From an uncultured Solirubrobacterales bacterium (GTDB lineage Bacteria; Actinomycetota; Thermoleophilia; Solirubrobacterales; Solirubrobacteraceae): a stretch of DNA of 64,000 bases. The stretch's first letter is position 1. Each line of letters opens with the position of its first letter. The notes below the pieces were generated by a model. The model worked only from the letters and a program-made list of their open reading frames with translations, did not search any database and was not told the origin of the DNA. A program made the position numbers and the translations under genes. Positions 4,192-57,529 of the stretch are shown here, piece by piece. The stretch lies in NCBI GenBank assembly GCA_963697945.1, contig OY969105.1:3035269-3099268 (forward strand), read 5' to 3'.

Positions 4192-4336
4192 CTGAGCGGT
4201 GCATGCACCGCTCAGCGGAGTCGTACATGTACGACTCCGTGACGAGCCGCATGCGGCTCGTCATCCGATGGGCGCATGCGCCCATCGGCGGGACCGCACA
4301 TGTGCGGTCCCGGGCAGGGCCGCATGCGGCCCTGCC
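4192..4336. repeat. Array 1 of six tandem 24-bp perfect palindromes centred on CATG
   Basis: Units 4192-4215, 4216-4239, 4240-4263, 4265-4288, 4289-4312, 4313-4336; each is a 10-bp arm + CATG + the exact reverse complement, checked base by base. Confidence 0.97.
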
Positions 4337-5694: not shown

Positions 5695-6960
5695 GTGACT
5701 CGGAACCGGATTGCCCACACCCTGATCCTGCTCTGCGGGGCGCTCTCGACCCTCTGCGGCCTGCCCGCCGTGGCCGGTGCGGCGACGGTCAGCCTCGCCG
5801 GGTTGCAGGCCGATCTGACCCACCAGCTGGCCCTCGCCGGGCCCGCGGATGGGGCCTACGTGTATGACGTGAGCGCCCACCAGGCCCTCTTCTCCGAGCG
5901 CGCGACCACGCTACGCCCGCCCGCGTCGGTACAGAAGCTCTACACCGCCACGGCCCTGCTCGCGCGCATGGGGACGACCGGCCGGTTGAGTACGACCGTC
6001 TACGGAGTCGGGCGGCTCGCGCCTGGCGGGGTGTGGGAAGGCGACCTGTATCTGCGCGGCGGCGGCGACCCTACGTTCGGCTCCAGCGCGTTCATCCGCG
6101 CTCACTACGGCGGCATCGGCGCCTCTGTCTCGACGCTCGCCACACAGCTGGTCCACAGCGCGGGGATCCATCGCATCACCGGCCGAGTAGTGGGAGACGA
6201 GTCGTGGTTTGACTCGCTGCGCGGTGAGCCCTCAAGCAACTATGCGCCCGACCCGTTTCTCGAAGGCACGCTCTCGGGCTTGGCCTTCAATCGCGGCGCG
6301 AGCGGCTCCGAACGCGGCGCACACGCTCCCGCGGCGTTTGCGGCACGTGAGCTGTGGGCGAACTTGAAGAACGACGGCGTCGCGATCGCCGGTCACAGCG
6401 GCGCCGCGAGCATGCCTCCGGGGGCCACTCAGCTCGCGCGCGTCCAGTCGCCCACCGCCACCCAGCTGCTGGGCCTGACGCTGCCACCGTCGGACAATTT
6501 TTTCGCCGAGACGCTCGTCAAGGACCTCGGCGCGATGTACGCCGGCGCCGGCACCACCGCGGCCGGCGCGTCGGTCGTACGTCAGACGATCGCCTCGCTG
6601 CTCGGCATCCACCCGCACGTCGTGGACGGCTCGGGTCTCTCGGAATCCGATCTGACCTCGCCGTATGAGGTCACCGACCTGCTCGTCGAGCTGGCCTCGA
6701 CGCCGATCGGTCCGGTGTTGCGCGGCGATCTGGCGATCGCAGGACATACCGGGACGCTGGCCACGCGCATGCGCCATACCGGCGCCTCGGGGCGCTGTCA
6801 GGGCAAGACCGGCACGCTCACGGGCGTCTCCAACCTCGCCGGCTACTGCACCGCCGCAAACGGCCACACGCTTGCGTTCGCGCTCTTCACCGACGGGATC
6901 GCCACGGAAGCCGCGCACGTCTTCCAGGATCACATGGCGATCACGATCGCCGGTTACTAG
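5695..6960 (+). CDS. dacB: D-alanyl-D-alanine carboxypeptidase/endopeptidase (PBP4, peptidase S13)
   Basis: Signal peptide from GTG 5695; SxxK (PASVQKL), GDLYLRGGGDP, SDN, DGSGLS and KTG motifs. Confidence 0.9.
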   Translation: MTRNRIAHTLILLCGALSTLCGLPAVAGAATVSLAGLQADLTHQLALAGPADGAYVYDVSAHQALFSERATTLRPPASVQKLYTATALLARMGTTGRLSTTVYGVGRLAPGGVWEGDLYLRGGGDPTFGSSAFIRAHYGGIGASVSTLATQLVHSAGIHRITGRVVGDESWFDSLRGEPSSNYAPDPFLEGTLSGLAFNRGASGSERGAHAPAAFAARELWANLKNDGVAIAGHSGAASMPPGATQLARVQSPTATQLLGLTLPPSDNFFAETLVKDLGAMYAGAGTTAAGASVVRQTIASLLGIHPHVVDGSGLSESDLTSPYEVTDLLVELASTPIGPVLRGDLAIAGHTGTLATRMRHTGASGRCQGKTGTLTGVSNLAGYCTAANGHTLAFALFTDGIATEAAHVFQDHMAITIAGY

Positions 6961-7935
6961 AGGCTTGATGCGGGTTTATCGTCCGTCGTAGGCGGCGAGT
7001 GCTCGGGGTGGACGTCCGGCGAGGATGTTGATGTGCATTGCGAGGGTGAGGGCGAGGAGGCGTTGCGCGATGCGTTGTACGAGCCCTCCGAGTGTCTTGG
7101 CGAGGTGGTCTTCTAGGCGCATTTGGCGCTTGAGGTTGGAGAACACGCTCTCGATGACCAGGCGTACGCGTGCCTTGACGATCTCGCTGGCGGGGCGTGG
7201 ACCAGGACGGTGGCGCTCGGGCGTGATGAGTTGGACATTGATGAGTTCCATGCAATCTCGGTACTCCTTCCCCCAAAAGCCCTTATCGGCAAAGAGTGTG
7301 CTGCCGGAATGCGCGGCCGCCAACTCCAACGCACGTTCACGCTCTTGCCCGGTCTTGGGACCTGTGAGGTCATAACCGACGGGAACACCCTTTGCGTCGC
7401 TGATGAGCACAAGGCGCATTCCCCACACGAACAGGCTCTTGGATGGGCAGTAGCCGTAACTGGCATGCCCGGCGAACTCGCTGAACGATGCGCAGCCTGG
7501 ATAGTTGGCGCACGCGATCAGCGTTCCGTCGACCAGTCGCACCTGTCCATCGGCGATCAACTCGGCGACCATCATCTGCACCGTTGTGATCTGAGGTGTG
7601 AGCCGTCTAAGCCTGCGGTTGTACTGCGACTGGCCAGGTAACTCGGGGAAGAACCCGGGCAGCAACCGGCCGATCACACCCAAAAACTGGCGGTCTGAAC
7701 AGATCCCCGTCACCGCCTGGGCGACCCCCACCGCGATCAGCTCCTGATCTGTGACCTTGCCAGGTGGGCCCGGGCGAGGAATCGACAACGAGCAGGCGAA
7801 TACGTAGGCTGCAACAACGAGGGTCTCCAGCGAAGCGTCCATCTCGTGCTCCAATCACGAGTTGACAAGGGCTGGGGACCCTCTTCTCATCCCACCACCA
7901 CGATTCCTGCCCACCACCCAACCCGCATCAAGCCT
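6961..7935 (-). mobile_element. IS982-family insertion sequence, copy 1 (975 bp)
   Basis: Perfect 16-bp terminal IR AGGCTTGATGCGGGTT/AACCCGCATCAAGCCT; CTAG repeated on both flanks (6957-6960, 7936-7939); second copy at 52351-53325. Confidence 0.92.
6976..7842 (-). CDS. IS982-family DDE transposase
   Basis: KVTDQEL..FPELPGQSQYNRRLRRL N-terminus; DDE triad in VDGT, ADKGF, IESVFSNLK; GGAG RBS before ATG 7842. Confidence 0.88.
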   Translation of the reverse strand: MDASLETLVVAAYVFACSLSIPRPGPPGKVTDQELIAVGVAQAVTGICSDRQFLGVIGRLLPGFFPELPGQSQYNRRLRRLTPQITTVQMMVAELIADGQVRLVDGTLIACANYPGCASFSEFAGHASYGYCPSKSLFVWGMRLVLISDAKGVPVGYDLTGPKTGQERERALELAAAHSGSTLFADKGFWGKEYRDCMELINVQLITPERHRPGPRPASEIVKARVRLVIESVFSNLKRQMRLEDHLAKTLGGLVQRIAQRLLALTLAMHINILAGRPPRALAAYDGR

Positions 7936-9978
7936 CTAGAGGTCTCTGGCTTCAAGCAGCTCGCGCAACCCGTCCTCGTCGAGCACCGGCACCGCCAGGC
8001 GCTGGGCCTTGGCGAGCTTTGACCCGGCGGACTCGCCCGCGACGAGGTAGTCGGTGTTCTTCGACACCGACGCGGTGACGCGCCCGCCCGCGGCCATGAT
8101 CCGTTCGCTGGCCTGCTCGCGCGTCCAGTCCGGCAGGGTGCCGGTCAACACGAACGTCTTGCCCGCCAGCGGCCCCTCCGAGGGCGGCGGGCCCTGTTCG
8201 CGCAGCTGCAATCCGAGGCCGCGCAGGTCTGAGATCAGCGCGCGCATGCGCTCATCCTCGAGCTGGGCGCGGATCGTGCGCGCCATCTTCTCGCCGATGC
8301 CGGGGGTCTGGGAGATCTCCTCGGTGCTCGCCCCGAGCAGCGCGTCGATCGTGCGAAAGCGCATCGCGAGGTTGCGCGCGGTGATCTCGCCGACCTCCTC
8401 GATGCCGAGCCCAAAGAGCACGCGCGCGAACGGGCGCTGCTTTGAGGCCTCGATCGCGCCGATCAGGCTGCGTGCGGACTGCTCGGCGAAGCCCTCCAGC
8501 TCGATCAGCTGCTCGGCGGTCAGCCGGTAGAAGTCCGCGTCGGTACGCACCAGCCCGCGCTCCTGCAGCAGCGCGACCTGCTTCTCGCCCAGGCCCTCGA
8601 TGTCCATCGCGCCCTGGGAGACGAAGTGCTTGAGCAACTGCCATGCCCGTGCCGGACAATCGCGGTTGGGGCACTGCGTGAACACGCCCTCGCGCGGCTT
8701 GACCGTTTTGGTGTTGCAAAACGGGCACCTGGAAGGGGCGCGCGGACGCGGCGGACGCTTGCCGGAGCGGTCGAGCACGTGCGGCGCGGGCGAGACCACC
8801 TGCGGGATCACATCGCCCGCGCGCATCACGATCACCTCCTCGCCCGGACGCAGGTCCTTGCGGCGCAGATCCTCCTCGTTGTGGAGCGTCGCCAACTTGA
8901 TCGTCACCCCTCCGACCGCGACGGGTGTGAGCATGGCGTAGGGGCGCAAATCGCCGAACTTGCCGACGTTCCACATGACCTTCTCCAGGGTGGTCACGGC
9001 GGTGGTGGGCGGGAACTTCCAGGCGATCGCCCAGCGCGGATCGCGCCCGACCGAACCCAGGCGGCGCTGCAGCTGCAGATCGTCGACCTTCACCACCACC
9101 CCGTCGATCTCAAAGTCAAGCTCGCCGCGGCGGCGCTGCCAGTCAAGGCACTGTTCGATCACCTCCTCCTCGCTGTCCAGCACCTGAATGTCGGGGTTCA
9201 CACGGAAGCGATGCTCGCGCAACCACTCAAGCGCCTGGGAGTGGCGTTTGAGCTCGAAGGACAGCCCCTCAACGACACCCAGCTGGTAGCACCACATCGA
9301 CAACGGCCGCTCGCGCGCATCCGCGGGATCGAGTTGGCGGATCGTGCCGGCGGCGGAGTTGCGCGGGTTCATGAACGTCGGCTCTCCGGCCTGGGCGCGG
9401 CGCTCGTTGAGCGCGGCGAAGTCGGCCAGCGACATATACACCTCGCCGCGCACCTCCAAGAGTGGCGGCACATCCTCGACGCGCAGCGGGATCGAGCCGA
9501 TCGTGCGCAGGTTATGCGTGACGTCCTCCCCCACCTCGCCGTTACCGCGCGTGGCCCCGCGCTCGAGCACCCCTTCGCGATAGACGAGGCTCATCGCAAG
9601 CCCGTCGATCTTCGGCTCGACCACGAAACGAAAGCGCGGCTGCGCGATGCCCTCGCGCGCGAGATGGGTGCGCATCCGCTCGACCCACGCACGCAGCTCC
9701 TCCTCGGTACGAGCGTTCGGCAGCGAGAGCATCGGCTCCAGGTGCGTGACCTTCTCGAGCTTCCCCACCGGCTCCCCGCCCACGCGCTGGGTGGGCGAGT
9801 CGGGCGTACGCAGCTGGGGGTGGGTGGCCTCGATCGCGCGCAACTCGTCCAGCAGCGCGTCATAGACGTCATCGCCGATCTCCGGATCGTCGAGGACGTA
9901 ATAGCGATAGGCGTGATGTTCGAGCTGCGTGCGTAGCTCCCCCGCGCGAGCCCAAATCTCCTTTCCGGGTTCGCTCAC
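7936..9978 (-). CDS. ligA: NAD-dependent DNA ligase
   Basis: YYVLDDP, KIDGLA adenylation motif, DGVVVK, CPFC...CPNRDC zinc finger, HhH repeats, BRCT (TFVLTGTL). Confidence 0.97.
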   Translation of the reverse strand: MSEPGKEIWARAGELRTQLEHHAYRYYVLDDPEIGDDVYDALLDELRAIEATHPQLRTPDSPTQRVGGEPVGKLEKVTHLEPMLSLPNARTEEELRAWVERMRTHLAREGIAQPRFRFVVEPKIDGLAMSLVYREGVLERGATRGNGEVGEDVTHNLRTIGSIPLRVEDVPPLLEVRGEVYMSLADFAALNERRAQAGEPTFMNPRNSAAGTIRQLDPADARERPLSMWCYQLGVVEGLSFELKRHSQALEWLREHRFRVNPDIQVLDSEEEVIEQCLDWQRRRGELDFEIDGVVVKVDDLQLQRRLGSVGRDPRWAIAWKFPPTTAVTTLEKVMWNVGKFGDLRPYAMLTPVAVGGVTIKLATLHNEEDLRRKDLRPGEEVIVMRAGDVIPQVVSPAPHVLDRSGKRPPRPRAPSRCPFCNTKTVKPREGVFTQCPNRDCPARAWQLLKHFVSQGAMDIEGLGEKQVALLQERGLVRTDADFYRLTAEQLIELEGFAEQSARSLIGAIEASKQRPFARVLFGLGIEEVGEITARNLAMRFRTIDALLGASTEEISQTPGIGEKMARTIRAQLEDERMRALISDLRGLGLQLREQGPPPSEGPLAGKTFVLTGTLPDWTREQASERIMAAGGRVTASVSKNTDYLVAGESAGSKLAKAQRLAVPVLDEDGLRELLEARDL

Positions 9979-23494: not shown

Positions 23495-24408
23495 CAGCGG
23501 GGACCTCCGCCGCCGCCACCGGAGCGAGGACCACGTCCCCCTCCTCCACCTCCGGGACCACGTCCACCACCACCGCCGCCCCCGCGACCGCCGGGACCGC
23601 CGAAACCGCCGCCGCGACCGCCACGTCCACCGCCCGGTCCGCCGCCGCGACCGCCGGGACCACCACTACCGCCGCGTCCACGCCCGCGCCCGTCACGCCC
23701 GTCGCGCCCTCCGCGCCCGTCACGATCGTTGCCGGGAGGGGCCGGCGCGGTCATGTCGGTGAGGTCAGCGCCGGTGTATCCCTCGGGCATGATCTCGCCC
23801 TTGTTCACCCAGCACTTGACGCCGATGCGCCCAAACGTCGTGCGCGCCTCGTAGAAGCCGTAGTCGATGTCGGCGCGCATCGTGTGCAGCGGCACGCGGC
23901 CGTCGGAGTAGCTTTCGGTGCGCGCCATCTCGGCGCCGCCCAGACGGCCCGCGACCTGCACCTTTACGCCCTTGGCGCCGGAGCGCATCGCGCTTGTCAG
24001 CGCACGCTTCATCGCGCGACGGAAGGCGACACGGTTTTGCAGTTGCTCGGCGATCGACTGCGCGACCAGCTTGGCATCGAGCTCCGGGCGCTTGATCTCG
24101 AGAATGTTGACCTTGATCTGCTTGGAGGTCAGGCGATGAAGATCGCGGCGCAGCGCGTCGACTTCGGTGCCGGACTTGCCGATCACGATGCCCGGGCGAG
24201 CGGTGTGGATGTTGACCTCGAGTTCGTTCGCGTCCTTGCGAATCGTGATGTCTGAGAGGCCGGCGTGCGCAAGCTTGCCGATGATGTGTTCGCGCACGCG
24301 AATGTCCTCGGCGAGATACTCGGAGAACGAGCGCTCGTTGAACCAGTTCGACTTCCAGTCATGGATGTAGCCGACGCGCATCGCCTCGGGGTGAACCTTT
24401 TGTCCCAT
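23494..24408 (-). CDS. rpsC: 30S ribosomal protein S3 with Gly/Arg-rich C-terminal tail
   Basis: [35 protein letters not shown]. Confidence 0.98.
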
Positions 24409-25425: not shown

Positions 25426-25529
25426 CCACGGATACGTAGGGCAAGCTGGGCAAGGACGCAGTGAGCGAAGTGTGCTGTGCACACGAGTGATCGAGGACGC
25501 CGATCCAGCGCCGCCATACGTGTTCGTGG
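25426..25529 (+). repeat. Structured ~104-bp dispersed element, copy A
   Basis: 13-bp outer stem CCACGGATACGTA/TACGTGTTCGTGG, inner GCTGG/CCAGC, AGGACGC direct repeats, apical GTGTGC-TGT-GCACAC. Confidence 0.8.
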
Positions 25530-28704: not shown

Positions 28705-28727
28705 CGCCGCCGGGGATCCCGGCGGCG
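28705..28727 (-). terminator. Hairpin just downstream of tuf, possible terminator or processing site
   Basis: CGCCGCCGGG-GAT-CCCGGCGGCG 10-bp stem, 11 nt after the tuf stop; no clear U-tract. Confidence 0.45.
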
Positions 28728-30099: not shown

Positions 30100-30205
30100 C
30101 TGAGAGGGCCGTGAGTCGAGCGAGACAAGGACGCAGGGAGCGTGGCGTACTACGTACGCGAGCGACCGAGGACGCAGTATCGCGAAGCGCTCACGGTCAT
30201 CTCAG
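30100..30205 (+). repeat. Structured ~104-bp dispersed element, copy B
   Basis: Outer stems CTGAGA/TCTCAG and GGCCGTGAG/CTCACGGTC, two AGGACGCAG, apical GCGTAC-TAC-GTACGC. Confidence 0.8.
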
Positions 30206-32517: not shown

Positions 32518-33123
32518 TCAGGCGGTCTTTGCGTTTGCGTCCGTCGCCGGATCGGGGCAGGACCCGCTGCTGGGAGCGTCTTCGAACACCACGCTGAGGC
32601 GCTCCAGCACGCGGGTGGCGACGCGTAGCTCCTCCGGCTCAACGCCCTGTAGCGCAGCCTGCCAGCCTCCCTGCCAGGCGGCGCGCTTGGCCTCGATCTT
32701 GCCTCTGCCCTGCACCGTCAGACGGGAGACCACCACGCGGCGGTCGGTCTCAGAGCGAGCGCGCTCGACGTGACCGCAGTCCGCGAGATGCTCGAGCATC
32801 TGCGTGACGGTGGCTGGGGTCAGCCGCGCCGCTGCGGCGAGCTCCCCTGCCGGCAGCTCACCGCGCTCGTACAGCTCGATCAGCAGCTCGAACTGGGCAT
32901 GGCTGATCTCCGAGCCCCCGAGATGGGTGTCGCGACCGCGCAGGCGATTGAGACTGCGAAACACCCGGCGAAAGGCCTTACCGAGCCCGTCCAGCTCGGC
33001 GCTCCACTCCGGCGCCGGGTAAGCGAGCGCCGATCCCACCGCTCCCGAGTCCGAGGACCCGGGTGAGGAGGCCGGATCGGGGTCCGCCGGTTGGATGGAG
33101 GGTGTGGCCGCGGTTGGGCTCAT
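32518..33123 (-). CDS. MarR-family transcriptional regulator
   Basis: [36 protein letters not shown]. Confidence 0.9.
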
Positions 33124-33136
33124 GCCGCTGTCCCCA

Positions 33137-34627
33137 CTACGCCCCGAGCGGCTCGACCGCGGCCTCAGCGCCGGCGGCCTCGCGCGTGAGCTTCGCGCGC
33201 GGATTCTCGGCCCGTGCCAGCACCAGACACGGGATCAGCGACAGCAGCGCGATTGCCAGGGCCCACCAGTAGGCCGAGTTGAACGCGCTCGCGAGCTGCG
33301 CCGGCGTGGACGCGTGGGCGCCGGCGCGTTGCAGCACGACCGCGAGCACCGCCACTCCGATCGCCCCGCCGACACGCTGGAGCATGTTCAGCTGCGGCGT
33401 CGCGTCGGAGAGCTCCTCCGGTCGCAGTGCCGTGAACGCGGCGGTCATCGCGGGCATGAACGACAGCCCGATGCCCACGCCGCGCACGGCCAGCACGAGT
33501 GAAATCGCGACGATCGAGGTGTTCGCTCCGATCAGCACGAACGGGACCGTGCTCAGACACAGGATCGAGACGCCGACGATCGCCACGCGACCGCCCCCGA
33601 AGCGTTCGGTGAGGCGTCCGTTGAGCGGTCCGACGAGCAGCATCCCCAGCCCTTGCGGGCCGACGAGCAGGCCCGTGACGATGATGCTCTCGCCGCGCAC
33701 CTCCTGGTAGTAGAGCGGGATCAAAATCATCGCGCCGAACAGCGAGGCGCCCAGCCCGAACGTCGTCAGCGAGGCCGCCCCGAAGACGCGGTTCTTATAC
33801 AGACGGATGTCAAGCAGCGGACGCTCGACCCGCAGCGCGTGCCAACCGAACGCAAGCGTCAGCGCGACCCCGACCAGCAGCGGCCAGATCACGCTCGGGG
33901 CGGTGAGGCTGGCGTTCGTGCCGAGCTCCGACAGGCCATACACGACCGCGGTGGCGCCCGTCGAGATCAGTGCCAGGCCGAGCACGTCCAGCTGTCCGGC
34001 CTCGCCGGACTCGGTCTTCGGCAGCATCCGCCAGCCGAGCACGAACGCGACCACGCCGATCGGGACGTTGACGAGGAAGATCCACGACCAGTGCAGCTCC
34101 TGCAGGATCACGCCCCCGACCACCGGCCCGAGGATCGGTGCGAGCATCGCGGGCATCACCACGACGCCCATCACGCGACCCATCCGCTTGGGGCCCGCGA
34201 CCTGGGCCATGATCAGCTGAGCGATCGGCATGATCATCCCGCCGCCGGCTCCCTGCAGCACGCGAAAGAACACGAGCGTCGTCAGCGAGCCGGCCACCGC
34301 GCACAGTCCCGAGCCGGCCGTGAACAGCACCAGCGAGACCAGATACACGCGCTTGGCCCCGAACCGCCGTGCCGCCCATCCAGTCACCGGGATGACCGCC
34401 GCCAGCGCGAGCAGATAGCCGGTTACGACCCACTGCACTTGGGAGATCGAGCTGTGCAGATCGTGCCCGAGCGTGTGCAGCGCGACGTTCACGATGGTCG
34501 TGTCGAGGATCGACATGATCATCCCCAGGATCACCACGCCGGCGATCTTCCAGACGTAGGGCTCGATGTGATCTGAGGCCTCCGGGTGAAAGCCCGGATC
34601 GGCTGCGGTTGTCGGAGAGGAAGACAT
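33137..34627 (-). CDS. DHA2 (EmrB/QacA-type) MFS efflux transporter
   Basis: LDTTIVNVAL, QWVVTGYLLA, RRFGAKR, RVLQGAGGG, GPVVGG; about 14 TM. Confidence 0.92.
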   Translation of the reverse strand: MSSSPTTAADPGFHPEASDHIEPYVWKIAGVVILGMIMSILDTTIVNVALHTLGHDLHSSISQVQWVVTGYLLALAAVIPVTGWAARRFGAKRVYLVSLVLFTAGSGLCAVAGSLTTLVFFRVLQGAGGGMIMPIAQLIMAQVAGPKRMGRVMGVVVMPAMLAPILGPVVGGVILQELHWSWIFLVNVPIGVVAFVLGWRMLPKTESGEAGQLDVLGLALISTGATAVVYGLSELGTNASLTAPSVIWPLLVGVALTLAFGWHALRVERPLLDIRLYKNRVFGAASLTTFGLGASLFGAMILIPLYYQEVRGESIIVTGLLVGPQGLGMLLVGPLNGRLTERFGGGRVAIVGVSILCLSTVPFVLIGANTSIVAISLVLAVRGVGIGLSFMPAMTAAFTALRPEELSDATPQLNMLQRVGGAIGVAVLAVVLQRAGAHASTPAQLASAFNSAYWWALAIALLSLIPCLVLARAENPRAKLTREAAGAEAAVEPLGA

Positions 34628-34667
34628 TTGGTACCGAAAGTTTAGGTACCAAACCTTATTTCTTCAA
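34627..34667 (-). promoter_or_regulatory. Promoter TTGAAG-17-TAAACT overlapped by a 27-bp inverted repeat (probable MarR operator)
   Basis: -35 at 34662-34667 and -10 at 34639-34644 on the minus strand; palindrome TTTGGTACC-GAAAGTTTA-GGTACCAAA at 34627-34653. Confidence 0.75.
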
Positions 34668-34686
34668 CCCCGCCGAGGATGTTGTT

Positions 34687-34832
34687 CTGCTCGGCGCATG
34701 CGCCGAGCAGCGGGGGCGCGCATGCGCGCCCCCGAACGGGCCGCACATGTGCGGCCCGGGCGTCGCCACATGTGGCGACGCCTTGCGGGCGGTGCATGCA
34801 CCGCCCGCCGACCCCGCGCATGCGCGGGGTCG
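34687..34832. repeat. Array 2 of six tandem CATG-centred perfect palindromes
   Basis: Units 34687-34710, 34711-34734, 34737-34758 (22 bp), 34759-34782, 34785-34808, 34809-34832. Confidence 0.97.
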
Positions 34833-34887
34833 CCCTACAAGGTCAATGCGACCGATAGCCAGTCGGGCAATCGTATGTCGCTACGAC

Positions 34888-34991
34888 GTAGCGGTTCGAG
34901 GACCAAGCGGACCGCGGACGCAGGGAGCGAAGTGTGCTCTGCACATGAGCGACCGAGGACAAAGGTCCGCGCCGCGTCCTCGGGCCGCTAC
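34888..34991 (+). repeat. Structured ~104-bp dispersed element, copy C
   Basis: 16-bp outer stem GTAGCGGTTCGAGGAC/GTCCTCGGGCCGCTAC, inner GCGGACC/GGTCCGC, apical GTGTGC-TCT-GCACAT. Confidence 0.8.
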
Positions 34992-35458
34992 CAGCGGTAA
35001 TGGGCGAAGGCCTTGTTGGCCTGGGCCATGCGGTAAATGTCGTCCTTGCGCTTATACGCACCGCCCTGCTGAGACTGGGCGTCCAACAGCTCGTTGGCCA
35101 GTCGCTGGGCCATCGTCTTCTCGCGGCGCTGGCGCGCGAACTCGACCAGCCAGCGCACCGCCAGCGTACGCGCGCGGCGCGAAGCAACCTCGACGGGGAC
35201 CTGATAGGTGGCGCCACCGACGCGGCGCGATTTGACCTCAAGGGTCGGCGTGAGCGCCTTGATCGAGGCCTCGAGCGTCTCGATCGGGTCTTTGTCCGAG
35301 CGCTCCCCCAACAGTGCCAGCGCGTCGTAGACGATCCGCTCGGCCGTCGACTTCTTGCCGTCGAGCATCACCTTGTTGATCACCTGCTGGACCAGCTTCG
35401 AGCGATGTATCGGGTCCGCCTCCACGGGGCGAATTTGGGCGGCTGCGCGTCTGGGCAT
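34988..35458 (-). CDS. rpsG: 30S ribosomal protein S7
   Basis: [38 protein letters not shown]. Confidence 0.98.
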
Positions 35459-38622: not shown

Positions 38623-38651
38623 AAAACGCGGCCGGGCATTACCCGGCCGCG
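38622..38651 (-). terminator. Intrinsic terminator of rpoC
   Basis: CGCGGCCGGG/CCCGGCCGCG 10-bp stem followed by T5 on the minus strand, 22 nt after the rpoC stop. Confidence 0.7.
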
Positions 38652-38673
38652 CGTGTCCAACTGTACCCGAGGA

Positions 38674-49334: not shown

Positions 49335-49384
49335 ATCGAACGCCTAGGTTAGCTGCGATTGACTGGGATTGTCTTCTTGATGTC

Positions 49385-49528
49385 GCCCACGGCGCGTGCG
49401 CCGTGGGCCGCAGGCGCGCATGCGCGCCTGCGTGGGAGCCGCACATGTGCGGCTCCACCGGCGGCGCATGCGCCGCCGGCCAGACGGGCGCATGCGCCCG
49501 TCTGCGGGTCGGTACATGTACCGACCCG
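49385..49528. repeat. Array 3 of six tandem CATG-centred palindromes
   Basis: Units 49385-49408 (core CGTG), 49409-49432, 49435-49456 (22 bp), 49458-49479 (22 bp), 49481-49504, 49505-49528. Confidence 0.97.
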
Positions 49529-49531
49529 GTC

Positions 49532-52247: not shown

Positions 52248-52350
52248 CTAGACGGCCGGGAGGCAAGAGAGGCAAGAACGCAGGAGGCGAGGCGTACTAC
52301 GTACGCGAGCCGACGAGGACGCAGCATCTCGCCGCCTCCCGACCGTCTAG
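52248..52350 (+). repeat. Structured ~104-bp dispersed element, copy D
   Basis: 17-bp outer stem CTAGACGGCCGGGAGGC/GCCTCCCGACCGTCTAG (1 mismatch), apical GCGTAC-TAC-GTACGC, GAGGACGCAG. Confidence 0.8.
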
Positions 52351-53325
52351 AGGCTTGATGCGGGTTTATCGTCCGTCGTAGGCGGCGAGTGCTCGGGGTG
52401 GACGTCCGGCGAGGATGTTGATGTGCATTGCGAGGGTGAGGGCGAGGAGGCGTTGCGCGATGCGTTGTACGAGCCCTCCGAGTGTCTTGGCGAGGTGGTC
52501 TTCTAGGCGCATTTGGCGCTTGAGGTTGGAGAACACGCTCTCGATGACCAGGCGTACGCGTGCCTTGACGATCTCGCTGGCGGGGCGTGGACCAGGACGG
52601 TGGCGCTCGGGCGTGATGAGTTGGACATTGATGAGTTCCATGCAATCTCGGTACTCCTTCCCCCAAAAGCCCTTATCGGCAAAGAGTGTGCTGCCGGAAT
52701 GCGCGGCCGCCAACTCCAACGCACGTTCACGCTCTTGCCCGGTCTTGGGACCTGTGAGGTCATAACCGACGGGAACACCCTTTGCGTCGCTGATGAGCAC
52801 AAGGCGCATTCCCCACACGAACAGGCTCTTGGATGGGCAGTAGCCGTAACTGGCATGCCCGGCGAACTCGCTGAACGATGCGCAGCCTGGATAGTTGGCG
52901 CACGCGATCAGCGTTCCGTCGACCAGTCGCACCTGTCCATCGGCGATCAACTCGGCGACCATCATCTGCACCGTTGTGATCTGAGGTGTGAGCCGTCTAA
53001 GCCTGCGGTTGTACTGCGACTGGCCAGGTAACTCGGGGAAGAACCCGGGCAGCAACCGGCCGATCACACCCAAAAACTGGCGGTCTGAACAGATCCCCGT
53101 CACCGCCTGGGCGACCCCCACCGCGATCAGCTCCTGATCTGTGACCTTGCCAGGTGGGCCCGGGCGAGGAATCGACAACGAGCAGGCGAATACGTAGGCT
53201 GCAACAACGAGGGTCTCCAGCGAAGCGTCCATCTCGTGCTCCAATCACGAGTTGACAAGGGCTGGGGACCCTCTTCTCATCCCACCACCACGATTCCTGC
53301 CCACCACCCAACCCGCATCAAGCCT
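52351..53325 (-). mobile_element. IS982-family insertion sequence, copy 2 (975 bp)
   Basis: Same IRs, length and ORF translations as copy 1; CTAG at 52347-52350 and 53326-53329. Confidence 0.92.
52366..53232 (-). CDS. IS982-family DDE transposase
   Basis: Translation identical to the copy 1 transposase. Confidence 0.88.
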   Translation of the reverse strand: MDASLETLVVAAYVFACSLSIPRPGPPGKVTDQELIAVGVAQAVTGICSDRQFLGVIGRLLPGFFPELPGQSQYNRRLRRLTPQITTVQMMVAELIADGQVRLVDGTLIACANYPGCASFSEFAGHASYGYCPSKSLFVWGMRLVLISDAKGVPVGYDLTGPKTGQERERALELAAAHSGSTLFADKGFWGKEYRDCMELINVQLITPERHRPGPRPASEIVKARVRLVIESVFSNLKRQMRLEDHLAKTLGGLVQRIAQRLLALTLAMHINILAGRPPRALAAYDGR

Positions 53326-53907
53326 CTAGTGGCTCTCGAGGACCCGGTCGATCAAGCCGTACTCCTGCGCCTGCTCGGCCGTGAAGAAACGGTCGCGCTC
53401 CATATCCCTGCGCACCTGCTCGGTCGGGCGGCCGGTGTGTTCGGCGTAGATTTCGTCCAGGCGGCCCCTGACGGCGAGGATCTCGCGGGCGTGGATCTCG
53501 ATGTCGGTCGACTGGCCTTCGAACCCGGCCGAGGGCTGATGGATGAGGATGCGGCTGTTCGGCAACGCCGCGCGCTTGCCCTTCGTTCCTCCGGCCAGCA
53601 GCAACGAGCCCATCGACATCGCCACGCCCACGCACATCGTCGCGATGTCCGGCTTGACGAAGCGCATCGTGTCGTAGATCGCCAGCCCCGAATAGACCGA
53701 GCCGCCGGGGGAGTTGATGTAGATCGAGATGTCCTTCTCGGGGTCCTCCGACTCCAGATGCAGCAACTGAGCGACCACCAGGTTGGCGACCTGATCGTCG
53801 ATCGGGGTGCCGAGGAAGATGATGCGCTCGTTAAGCAAGCGCGAATAGATGTCGAACTCGCGCTCGCCCCGGGCGGTGCGCTCTATGACCATCGGAATCA
53901 GAGGCAT
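53326..53907 (-). CDS. clpP: ATP-dependent Clp protease proteolytic subunit
   Basis: [25 protein letters not shown]; catalytic Ser (AMSMG), His (IHQP), Asp (ERDRF). Confidence 0.97.
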
Positions 53908-56337: not shown

Positions 56338-56494
56338 GCCTTCTGGCTGCCCCGGCGCCCCGGCGCGCGTTTCAGACCGACGGCTGAGCCTTCTTCGGGC
56401 TGCCCCGGCGCCCGGCGCGCGTTTCAGACCGACGGCTGAGCCTTCTTCGGGCTGCCCCGGCGCCCCGGCGCGCGTTTCAGACCGACGGCTGAGC
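56286..56494. repeat. Tandem repeat, four copies of a 50-53-bp unit
   Basis: TCAGACCGACGGCTGAGC recurs at 56322, 56372, 56424 and 56477 with near-identical linkers. Confidence 0.9.
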
Positions 56495-57529
56495 GTCGTG
56501 CGCGCCGCCGCGCGGGCGATCGGGAGCGGAAAGCCACTCCTCCAGAGTCGTCTGACGGCCGGGCGGCGTAGCGGAGTCGATCTCCGCACGCAGCTCCGAG
56601 AGCAGCGAATGGCGCTCGGCCAGGACGTTGTGCTGATGGATCGTCTCCAGATTCTCCTGACGCGCGGAGACGAAGCTCGCGCCGTCCAGCTCCGGAAAGC
56701 GTGCGACGACGCCCGCGAGCATCTCGCGCACGCAATCCTCGACGAACCGCGGGCGGGCGTGGGCCCGTTCGACGACCGCCACCTCGTCGCTGCGCTTCAT
56801 CAGCTCGTAGATCTCCGAGGACATGCTCGACTCGACGATCTCAAGCAGCGCCCGCGCGTCGATCTCGACGTCGCACTCCTCGATACACCCGATCTGCAGC
56901 GTGCCCAGGCCGCGCTGATTGTGGGTCGCCACGGGCACCCGCGCGAGGATGCGCTCGATCTGTTCCTCCGTGAAGCCATCGGTGCGCAGACGCTCGCCCG
57001 CGCGCCCAGCGATCAGCTCCTGCGCGCACGGGCAGGCGGTCATGCCGGTGGCGGAGACGCCCACGACGCGGCGAGTGCCGTGTTCGTGCGCCACCGCGCG
57101 CCCGAGGAGCGTGTAGATCTCTTGAGTTTCCACTCCCGAGACCGGCGCGGGCTTGTGCTCGGGGTAACGCGCCGCGATCGTGACTTCCGCGCGCAACGCA
57201 TCCTGGCGGGCGCGCACCAACTCGGCGATGTGCTGGGCCAGCGTCTCGGCGCGAAACGGGGACTCGCTGAGAACGACCTCGCCGATCGCCTCGTTGACGA
57301 CCTCCTCGAAGCGAGACATGTGCGCGCCCTTCTGACCGGAACTCAGATCCACGAAACAGGACAGGCGCGCGAAGAACAGCTCCTCGCGGATGCGCACCAC
57401 CTTCTCCACGCCCGTCACGCCCACCCGCGACAGGCCGATCGGCACCGAGGGCGCCCGCGCCTGAACGTCGTCGCCCAAAGGATGCGTCGGAGACAGCGTG
57501 TTGATCTGCCGGGTCGCCTGCACCAGCAC
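56477..57529 (-). CDS. folE2: GTP cyclohydrolase I, FolE2/MptA type
   Basis: DDVQ, VGVTGV, KGAHMSRF, GMTACPC, ATHNQRG, YELMKRSDE, PRFVED, ETIHQHN. Confidence 0.92.
   Translation of the reverse strand: MLVQATRQINTLSPTHPLGDDVQARAPSVPIGLSRVGVTGVEKVVRIREELFFARLSCFVDLSSGQKGAHMSRFEEVVNEAIGEVVLSESPFRAETLAQHIAELVRARQDALRAEVTIAARYPEHKPAPVSGVETQEIYTLLGRAVAHEHGTRRVVGVSATGMTACPCAQELIAGRAGERLRTDGFTEEQIERILARVPVATHNQRGLGTLQIGCIEECDVEIDARALLEIVESSMSSEIYELMKRSDEVAVVERAHARPRFVEDCVREMLAGVVARFPELDGASFVSARQENLETIHQHNVLAERHSLLSELRAEIDSATPPGRQTTLEEWLSAPDRPRGGAHDAQPSV

Follow-up and report, generated by a model that had tools for sequence, protein, structure and literature searches.

What are the rows of perfect CATG-centred palindromes that stand directly behind genes in an uncultured Solirubrobacterales bacterium, how is their symmetry kept, and what might they do? 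These questions are raised by a 64,000-nt stretch of contig OY969105.1 (assembly GCA_963697945.1, positions 3,035,269 to 3,099,268 of the forward strand; hereafter the window), which covers the rpoBC/str-operon region of a 67% G+C actinobacterium whose NusG homologues at 97-99% identity carry the label Solirubrobacteraceae. Our subject is array 2, one of three such rows in the window, located between the ribosomal protein gene rpsG and a transporter gene of the MFS family. Comparison of orthologous arrays indicates that substitutions in the arms are almost always mirrored in the partner arm, and the array belongs to an intergenic family specific to Solirubrobacterales among the matches listed by our genome scan. 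Direct reading of the sequence and a mechanical scan resolved array 2 as follows.

34687..34832, no strand: array 2, six abutting perfect palindromes
34687-34710: unit 1 (24 bp), CTGCTCGGCG-CATG-CGCCGAGCAG
34711-34734: unit 2 (24 bp), CGGGGGCGCG-CATG-CGCGCCCCCG
34735-34736: unpaired spacer AA between units 2 and 3
34737-34758: unit 3 (22 bp), CGGGCCGCA-CATG-TGCGGCCCG
34759-34782: unit 4 (24 bp), GGCGTCGCCA-CATG-TGGCGACGCC
34783-34784: unpaired spacer TT between units 4 and 5
34785-34808: unit 5 (24 bp), GCGGGCGGTG-CATG-CACCGCCCGC
34809-34832: unit 6 (24 bp), CGACCCCGCG-CATG-CGCGGGGTCG

All six units have the form N9-10-CATG-N9-10 and are self-complementary over 100% of their length, matching in every detail the initial annotation, which had described six perfectly mirrored arms with AA and TT gaps before units 3 and 5. 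Folded as RNA, the array is predicted to form a series of six hairpins of 9-10 bp (-135.8 kcal/mol, z = -9.46). The window has 17 perfect palindromes whose arms reach 11 nt or more, whereas 200 simulations under a first-order Markov model gave 0.10 on average and never more than 1, and a spacing pattern of four CATG sites was matched eight times, compared to 0.00 in 100 shuffles. CATG is otherwise unremarkable here: 146 of the 204 sites in the window show no symmetry past the tetramer itself, and the 17 that are perfect palindromes (arms of 11-12 nt) are all confined to three arrays, at 4192-4336, 34687-34832 and 49409-49528. A chance origin of these arrays is excluded. The two sister arrays are the following.

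4192..4336, no strand: array 1, six perfect units that occupy the space between two convergent genes, with an orthologue in metagenomic locus L116
49385..49528, no strand: array 3, six units between nusG and rplK, with orthologues in loci L012, L235 and L252

Array 1 lies 6 nt from the stop codon of an aminotransferase gene on one side and 8 nt from that of a patatin-like gene on the other, and array 3 begins 3 nt past the nusG stop codon, ahead of rplK. The arms of the first unit of array 3 (49385-49408) are perfect and its centre reads CGTG; since the orthologues in L012 and L235 have CATG at this place, the change is a recent one-sided loop mutation. No unit is common to arrays 1, 2 and 3. 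The initial annotation had considered units 1-3 of array 2 colinear with those of array 3, and these units do resemble each other as described, but the match is no better than that of permuted unit orders: 18.5% of the permutations of array 3 scored as high or higher (p=0.185), and the similarity of the two arrays (0.32) lies below the mean of any two unrelated arrays (0.35). Any two arrays look about 74% alike because the shared core makes up half of every unit. Arrays 2 and 3 were thus rejected as demonstrable homologues.

To what kind of family, then, do the arrays belong? One genome per species from 185,579 species was scanned with the pattern CATGYR-N16-YRCATGYR-N15-18-YRCATGYR-N15-18-YRCATG, which demands CATG and YR in four consecutive regular units, is thereby biased toward CATG/YR, and lets arrays with other centres escape; the 17 CATG-centred perfect units of the window obey the YRCATGYR rule even though they were detected without any YR requirement. 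At least 119 loci were matched. Among the matches listed, 108 of 119 were metagenome-assembled genomes (MAGs) of Solirubrobacterales/Solirubrobacteraceae (two labelled just Actinomycetota), all with genuine palindrome arrays and originating from nanopore as well as Illumina projects; the remaining 11 (Lachnospiraceae, Legionella, Alteromonas and others) were plain direct tandem repeats. Homologous yet differing arrays in independent Illumina and nanopore assemblies led us to reject an assembly artefact. A phage or plasmid origin was likewise rejected, no CATG palindrome array having been found on viral contigs and the genome matches listed outside Solirubrobacterales being direct tandem repeats. 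Rfam matched only tRNA across the whole window, and a permissive scan of 34560-35010 matched no known RNA family (best hit RsmW, 31.3 bits against a threshold of 52). Our literature search found no description of such CATG arrays, and surveys of REP-like repeats (for repetitive extragenic palindromic) make no mention of Solirubrobacter, Conexibacter or Thermoleophilia, the class to which Solirubrobacterales belong.

Family-wide counts were made on the matches listed, in 8-kb pieces of MAGs around the matches and with heuristic gene calls. An array consists of three to eight abutting perfect palindromes of 22-24 bp, and 118 arrays together hold 540 perfect units. Measured from the middle of CATG, the arm is 12 nt long in 374 units and 11 nt in 89; centres follow each other at 24 nt in 256 cases and at 23 or 25 nt in about 60 each; and neighbouring units are separated by 0 nt (210 cases), 1 nt (96) or 2 nt (36), the letters of these spacers being 69% A/T against a background of about 68% G+C. 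A total of 564 perfect palindromes of 20 bp or longer were counted in 1.35 Mb of array-bearing DNA, and CATG forms the centre of 542. The central 8-mers of the latter are CGCATGCG (330), CACATGTG (129), TGCATGCA (69) and TACATGTA (14), all of them YRCATGYR, an alternating pyrimidine-purine run that contains RCATGY; the lone exception to this core, AACATGTT, was met in L252. The inner arm is semi-conserved and the outer arm hypervariable, 372 distinct arms being present among 504 units. About 60 different gene contexts are occupied.

The arrays are also polar. Fifty of 215 array ends read AACARCATC, compared to an expectation of about 1%, with C at position 6 in 88%; the remaining ends are rich in C. 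The polar end may face either toward or away from the upstream gene. A recurrent half-unit motif adjoins the polar end in L002, L004, L005, L030, L042, L062 (two copies), L071, L083, L089, L091, L097, L104 and L235 (980-1000). It reads (A)ACAnCATCAGCTTT-n5-8-CATG-YR and continues into a GC-rich arm, CATG marking the exact junction between an A/T-rich segment and one lone arm. In L071, L104, L042 and L235 the motif is accompanied by a duplicated part of the last unit. A reading of the ATCAGCTTT motif as a miniature open reading frame (ORF; MLLKS*) was dropped, the frame not being conserved across loci.

How do the arms change over time? Eighty metagenome loci that share the rpsG-MFS arrangement were found by a search with the MFS protein, and orthologues of array 2, unit for unit and at the same site, were found in L095 (a GTDB MAG), L063/L129, L151, L158, L162 and L187, where the MFS proteins of the metagenome loci are just 76-78% identical to that of the window. 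Covariation was examined in a seven-sequence alignment with the six hairpins of the window as the structure (59 stem pairs). Pairing was retained in 97.2% of the cells; both sides had changed in 20 of the 59 pairs (39 cells) and one side in three. These pairing values were matched by none of 500 shuffles, and pairing fell to 29-53% once partners were slid by one to three columns. Extending the count to 20 pairs of orthologous arrays from many loci (84-99% identity, array pairs under about 84% being left out of the ratio because of register shifts) gave 826 unchanged stem pairs, 78 mirrored changes and 16 one-sided changes, the latter figure being partly alignment noise. One-sided changes were thus not the majority in the larger sample, and the mirrored evolution of the arms put forward in the initial annotation is borne out by true orthologues. 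Its term for this, compensatory evolution, fits the mirrored changes themselves, but the comparison of arrays 2 and 3 on which it was founded does not serve as proof, and selection on pairing is not favoured by the kinds of change described below. Positional homology, in turn, holds unit for unit among orthologues; across all arrays it is limited to a modestly higher likeness of the two units closest to the AAC end (0.55 versus 0.45-0.49), and a strong positional homology among all arrays was therefore rejected.

Transversion-type changes, such as C:G to G:C or G:C to T:A, account for 36 of the 78 mirrored changes (46%). In the orthologues L026, L043 and L092, one position carries A, C and T alleles, each of them mirrored. 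In a static census, G:T states made up about 6 of roughly 5,700 stem pairs, and a stem mismatch was present in only about 12 of roughly 570 units. About ten units had a one-sided change of the central A/T and three a mirrored centre, TATA. Transversion-type mirrored changes cannot pass through a G:T or G:U intermediate and therefore point to copying at the DNA level, as does the scarcity of G:T states. If RNA pairing alone were under selection, G:U would be tolerated and transition pathways favoured. The units are, moreover, symmetrical through their palindromic centre even where one strand alone is likely transcribed. Template switching during replication (quasipalindrome correction) is known to turn imperfect inverted repeats into perfect ones (PMC7202029), and template switching has been documented to create and maintain RNA hairpins, a perfect stem being possible in one event (PMC8794818). 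Like our data, this mechanism predicts arm copying in one event, multi-base and transversion-type double changes and short-lived imperfect states (PMC7202029; PMC8794818); unlike the arrays, it is a mutational mechanism and not an element, and has not been described for a genome-wide family of hundreds of perfect palindromes with a fixed centre. The symmetry of the arrays is thus probably kept by template switching at the DNA level, a mechanism that leaves both the fixed arm length and the invariant YRCATGYR core unaccounted for. One-sided mutations of the centre are about eight times as frequent per position as stem mismatches and yet do not spread, which points to purifying selection on the centre and hence to something that recognises it, as RNA or as DNA.

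If template switching keeps the arms symmetrical, might it account for the arrays altogether? They would then be a functionless by-product, made and kept by switching pivoted on CATG and persisting where insertions are tolerated, that is, just past stop codons. A self-complementary tetranucleotide is an ideal switch point, one event suffices for a perfect stem (PMC8794818), half-units abutting CATG exist, and the arrays are dispensable and often lost. We nevertheless regard such an origin as improbable: orthologous arrays last unit for unit over deep divergence while the flanking spacer is scrambled, the arm length is held at 11-12 nt with the centre and inner arm conserved and the outer arm free, one-sided centre mutations occur without spreading, and CATG sites elsewhere in the window are ordinary. 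A related and equally doubtful reading takes the arrays to be both product and substrate of a CATG-directed DNA process, in which an RCATGY-specific nickase or HUH-type nuclease would act together with fold-back or template-switch synthesis. After a nick at the centre, some 10 nt of the adjoining sequence would be made palindromic, new perfect units would be added at the polar (AACARCATC) end and old ones continually re-symmetrised, and the half-units joined to ATCAGCTTT and the partial unit duplications (L235, L071, L104) would be intermediates. If true, the arrays would represent a self-copying DNA element of a new kind and not a REP variant.

The age of the arrays bears on whether they are mobile. 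Array 2 is old, being common to both sides of a deep MFS divergence, and decayed units are visible in L151, L158 and L162. It is missing, however, in the closest MFS relatives of the window (L120-L128, 86-96% MFS identity), where the rpsG-MFS spacer is empty (in L122, TAG, 4 nt and the -35 box), holds a small unrelated hairpin, or holds only element C, a structured repeat detailed below. The nusG-rplK junction is more changeable still: among contigs with identical NusG proteins (L217-L255), the spacer measures 2-12 nt, 36-41 nt, or 123-177 nt with a copy of element C that begins at the stop codon, and array-bearing states measure 287 nt (element C and a three-unit array, L252) or 239 nt (L235, six-unit array). 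Six units are present at this junction in L235, L012 and the window (region 49336-49531). L233 and L234, with a 3-nt spacer, and L235, with 239 nt, encode an identical NusG protein and are 94.7% identical in their nusG DNA. In other respects ultra-conserved, the junction is a hot spot at which structured cassettes are gained and lost. No target-site duplication was visible at filled versus empty nusG-rplK and rpsG-MFS sites. Arrays at different loci of the same genome are scarcely more alike than arrays of different genomes (0.378 versus 0.350), with 5 of 45 same-genome pairs past the 99th percentile of the background and L089 and L101 sharing two identical consecutive units. Neighbouring units resemble each other no more closely than units lying far apart (0.44 versus 0.43), and recent tandem duplication was rejected on this ground. 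Orthologous arrays are inherited vertically at orthologous sites, and overall the arrays are long-lived residents, often deleted and sometimes copied in part, rather than a recently proliferating repeat.

These observations weigh on the possibility that the arrays are mobile or domesticated elements akin to REPs and their composites, the bacterial interspersed mosaic elements (BIMEs). Their hairpins would be substrates of a hairpin-specific single-strand transposase (a REP-associated tyrosine transposase, RAYT, of the Y1-HUH type, or similar) that would cut at or near the CATG loop and seed or reshuffle units, any effect on transcripts being secondary. We consider this unlikely, if worth keeping in view. 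The arrays and REP/BIME clusters have in common that GC-rich palindromes are clustered outside genes, behind genes and in convergent gaps, and that presence is variable (PMC3333891; PMC4550694; bioRxiv 10.64898/2026.03.23.713779); in E. coli, REP positions vary between strains (bioRxiv 10.64898/2026.03.23.713779), and here presence differs between species-level relatives at the nusG-rplK spacer and in the MFS relatives that lack array 2. The blocks shared by some same-genome arrays, the conserved loop with variable stems that is typical of HUH nuclease sites, the polar end motif and the half-units joined exactly at CATG would also fit. REP units, on the other hand, are imperfect palindromes from a small number of sequence families that recur hundreds of times; they are tagged with GTAG, come in alternating orientations separated by defined linkers, and are associated with RAYTs. 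CATG units, by contrast, are perfect, lie 0-2 nt apart, share YRCATGYR alone and differ in nearly all their arms, so that the near-identical repeated units of a REP family are not found. The same-genome likeness, the equal likeness of adjacent and distant units, the absence of a target-site duplication and vertical inheritance across MFS proteins of 76-78% identity also argue against mobility. The sole insertion sequence (IS) noted in the window is a DDE IS5-like element, no search aimed at Y1-type transposases having been made.

Neither a GTAG nor a CGTC tag was seen beyond the stop codons themselves. Array-side stop codons stand within GTAG in 34% of cases, compared to 28% for all genes, and TAG makes up 53% of them, compared to 52% in the background; a REP-like GTAG tag was rejected, its frequency being explained by TAG-rich stop-codon usage. 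High-G+C bacteria usually prefer TGA, and in the Solirubrobacterales loci, at about 68% G+C, TAG accounts for 52% of stop codons, TGA for 42% and TAA for 6%. Other lineage-specific families of short intergenic stem-loops, namely the GTAG/CGTC-tagged repeats (SMAG, RPE and others; PMC3733652) and REPINs, have a terminal tag and a conserved stem, whereas the arrays have a conserved centre and a free stem. Miniature inverted-repeat transposable elements are not matched either, since no target-site duplication was present at the compared sites and no near-identical copies were found. As in CRISPR loci, a short motif recurs at regular spacing (every 24 bp) with variable sequence between and a polar conserved flank, but the shared core is only 8-10 bp instead of an identical repeat of 23-47 nt, each apparent spacer consists of two half-arms that are each complementary within their own unit, and the number of units is inherited unchanged across species. 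No cas-like genes were present among the neighbours inspected in the window and flanks, no systematic cas search having been made. We classify the CATG arrays among extragenic palindromes, with the unusual traits of perfect symmetry, free arms, a constant centre and abutting units.

Where the arrays stand relative to genes bears on what they might do. All arrays examined are intergenic and lie behind stop codons in either orientation. With positions taken from a crude gene caller based on G+C content at third codon positions (GC3), a confident gene 3′ end was located within 90 nt in 68 of 113 arrays among the matches listed (median 15 nt, lower quartile 7 nt); between co-directional genes, the array adjoins the upstream stop codon and a larger gap is left before the next gene. 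A gene context could be assigned to 92 arrays: it was co-directional in 62, convergent in 17 and, to all appearance, divergent in 13. The same hairpins arise from both strands, since every unit is identical to its own reverse complement. In metatranscriptome assemblies of three soil or sediment runs, contigs carried CATG arrays of related organisms, often near contig ends, which is suggestive of, and compatible with, transcription and 3′ ends within arrays. At array 2 itself, the minus strand reads rpsL, rpsG, element C, a 42-nt spacer, array 2, the polar flank AACAACATC, a 10-nt spacer and the MFS promoter, followed by the MFS ATG, a MarR gene, fusA and tuf. The neighbouring features are as follows.

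34988..35458, minus strand: rpsG (ribosomal protein S7), from its translation, with the neighbouring rpsL confirmed by Pfam
34836..34990, minus strand: element C, a long imperfect hairpin from the rpsG stop codon (core 34890-34971, an 82-nt repeat; fold z = -2.65)
34678..34686, minus strand: polar flank AACAACATC, adjoining the unit-1 end of array 2 and fitting the family consensus AACARCATC
34630..34667, minus strand: MFS promoter region, with -35-like TTGAAG (34662-34667), a 17-nt spacer and -10-like TAAACT (34639-34644)
34630-34650, minus strand: putative operator, a perfect inverted repeat GGTACC-N9-GGTACC overlapping the MFS -10, from sequence reading

The transcript of rpsG, the upstream gene, would run into element C and then into array 2, which, as the initial annotation had placed it, lies between element C and the MFS -35 box and ends 19 nt before the latter. 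The MFS ATG (34625-34627) is located 11 nt past the -10-like hexamer, so near that the MFS mRNA has little or no leader and is probably leaderless. Both the MFS gene and the MarR gene downstream are confirmed by Pfam, and the MFS gene likely encodes a MarR-repressed efflux pump. In all inspected MFS relatives, whether the array is present or not (L120-L128 included), the TTGAAG hexamer and the GGTACC operator stand at the same spacing. The str operon is normally contiguous (rpsL-rpsG-fusA-tuf), and the MFS-MarR pair (32518-34627) interrupts it between rpsG and fusA; the region upstream of the MFS gene was read in 12 loci from soil and peat metagenomes, and in each of them rpsG is the immediately preceding gene.

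Might the hairpins be ordinary intrinsic (Rho-independent) terminators, repeated for efficiency? GC-rich hairpins do lie directly past genes, and array 3 occupies the nusG/rplK junction, where E. coli has a terminator. Mycobacteria are another actinobacterial group than Solirubrobacterales. Their RNA polymerase needs a U-tract in vitro and does not terminate at U-less hairpins (PMC3993855), and no array has the 7-9-nt U-rich tract of such terminators on either strand, the flanks reading AACARCATC or being C-rich. The same genome, by contrast, has a canonical hairpin with TTTTT past rpoC, and neither a conserved loop nor perfect DNA symmetry is a feature of terminators. On these three grounds, the U-tract, the mycobacterial polymerase and the rpoC terminator, a canonical terminator is most improbable. 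The rpoC terminator (38626-38652, minus strand) has a 10-bp stem and a TAATG loop that resemble a single array unit, and past tuf stands a perfect hairpin of 10 bp (28705-28727, minus strand) that lacks a T-tract.

A role like that of E. coli REP clusters, as stabiliser and partial factor-dependent stop, appears more plausible than a canonical terminator. REP325, which like array 2 comprises six repeats, is a partly Rho-dependent terminator or attenuator and stabilises the upstream mRNA (bioRxiv 10.64898/2026.03.23.713779); REP clusters are transcribed, and their dual role has been proposed or demonstrated, whereas here we infer it. Stem-loops without a U-tract reported in a published study are likewise stable hairpins just downstream of genes and shield the transcript from PNPase and RNase II; unlike the array units, they are single unrelated hairpins with no shared loop, DNA-level symmetry or array arrangement. 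We thus tentatively propose that array 2 is a transcribed block of 3′-end hairpins that stabilises the upstream mRNA and acts as a partial insulator, with its symmetry kept by template switching, a reading that could well be right and that we hold with some reserve. Transcription would make the array the 3′ portion of the message from upstream (here rpsL-rpsG and element C), in which successive, highly stable hairpins of 10 bp would form, each with CAUG as its loop; these, like REP clusters in E. coli, would block 3′-to-5′ exonucleases and bring about a partial factor-dependent stop, shielding the rpsL-rpsG message and damping read-through into the MarR-controlled MFS promoter 19 nt on. The palindromic units would make the element work alike on either strand. 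Template switching within a palindrome during replication would copy a change in one arm into the other, and the constant arm length and core would be held by purifying selection, probably through a factor recognising the loop or the centre. The insulator or terminator function suggested in the initial annotation would fit the position of the arrays at stop codons and that of array 2 before the -35 box.

Several observations weigh against this proposal. A single hairpin would suffice for protection, and the need for four to eight units is unexplained. Any function must be dispensable, because the closest relatives lack array 2 (L120-L128) and array 3. About 13 of the 92 arrays lie between divergent genes, a class made unreliable by the crude gene caller and long uncalled stretches. 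No U-tract was found at any array on either strand, the terminator scan having flagged the rpoC hairpin and no array, and the first 20 nt past the arrays showed a weak C>G skew and no clear C-rich tract of the kind expected of a rut (Rho utilisation) signal. The RNA contigs are assemblies from other organisms, possibly with DNA among them, and the runs that contain the organism of the window are DNA-only. Finally, the strict palindromic centre, the lack of wobble and the three mirrored TATA centres fit a function at the DNA level equally well or better.

Such a function could take the form of a cis element, in which a dimeric protein would bind, cut or methylate the YRCATGYR palindromes as duplex or cruciform, the arrays acting as topological or replication barriers between transcription units; candidates would be an RCATGY-specific enzyme, a nucleoid protein or a topoisomerase. 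The whole unit, centre included, is a perfect DNA palindrome with RCATGY set in an 8-bp alternating pyrimidine-purine run, G:T states are nearly absent, both orientations and convergent gaps are occupied, and the spacing is a regular 24 bp. A dimeric protein, however, has no need of palindromic variable arms, GC-rich 24-bp palindromes extrude cruciforms poorly, and a placement tight on stop codons, instead of anywhere in the spacers, points to transcripts; we know of no candidate protein. A DNA-level element of this kind is in our estimation decidedly unlikely.

Element C, through which the proposed rpsG message would pass, belongs to a separate dispersed repeat family of about 120-170 nt with no Rfam match. 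Its core reads GTCCTCGGTCGCTC-GTGTGC-n-GCACAC-TTCGCTC-CTGCGTCC, and further copies are located at 25428-25509, 30103-30184 and 52250-52331. The element begins exactly at the stop codon, which is included in its basal stem (UAGCGG...CCGCUA for rpsG; UGAGGCGG...CCCCUCA for nusG in relatives), and in relatives it is found past rpsG (L121, L125, L129, L158, L162, L187) and past nusG (L218, L220-222, L226, L252, L255). It fills the same gene-end slots as the CATG arrays, at times together with them. The copy at 52250-52331 directly adjoins one of two copies of the IS5-like insertion sequence (52335-53341 and about 6945-7951, identical over the 300 nt compared), which encodes a DDE_Tnp_1 transposase of 292 aa and has inverted repeats of about 17 nt with CTAG on both sides. 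Two other repeats were observed in the window: three tandem copies of a 52-53-nt repeat, 82-88% identical (56340-56512), and a repeat with a 9/12-nt period (23519-23692), CCn-rich as read on the plus strand, which lies within a long ORF and probably corresponds to a low-complexity protein segment rich in Gly/Pro.

In practical terms, CATG arrays in soil MAGs can disrupt or mislead annotation, the prediction of terminators and programs that look for repeats or CRISPRs. With hundreds of units and thousands of pairs, the family is also a clean natural data set on how stems keep perfect pairing, and, if our reading is true, the data favour one-step copying at the DNA level over stepwise compensation at the RNA level, and the invariant YRCATGYR core predicts a trans-acting factor. 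An uncultured and widespread soil order would then have its own, hitherto undescribed punctuation at the ends of genes, REP-like in its placement and built on another principle.

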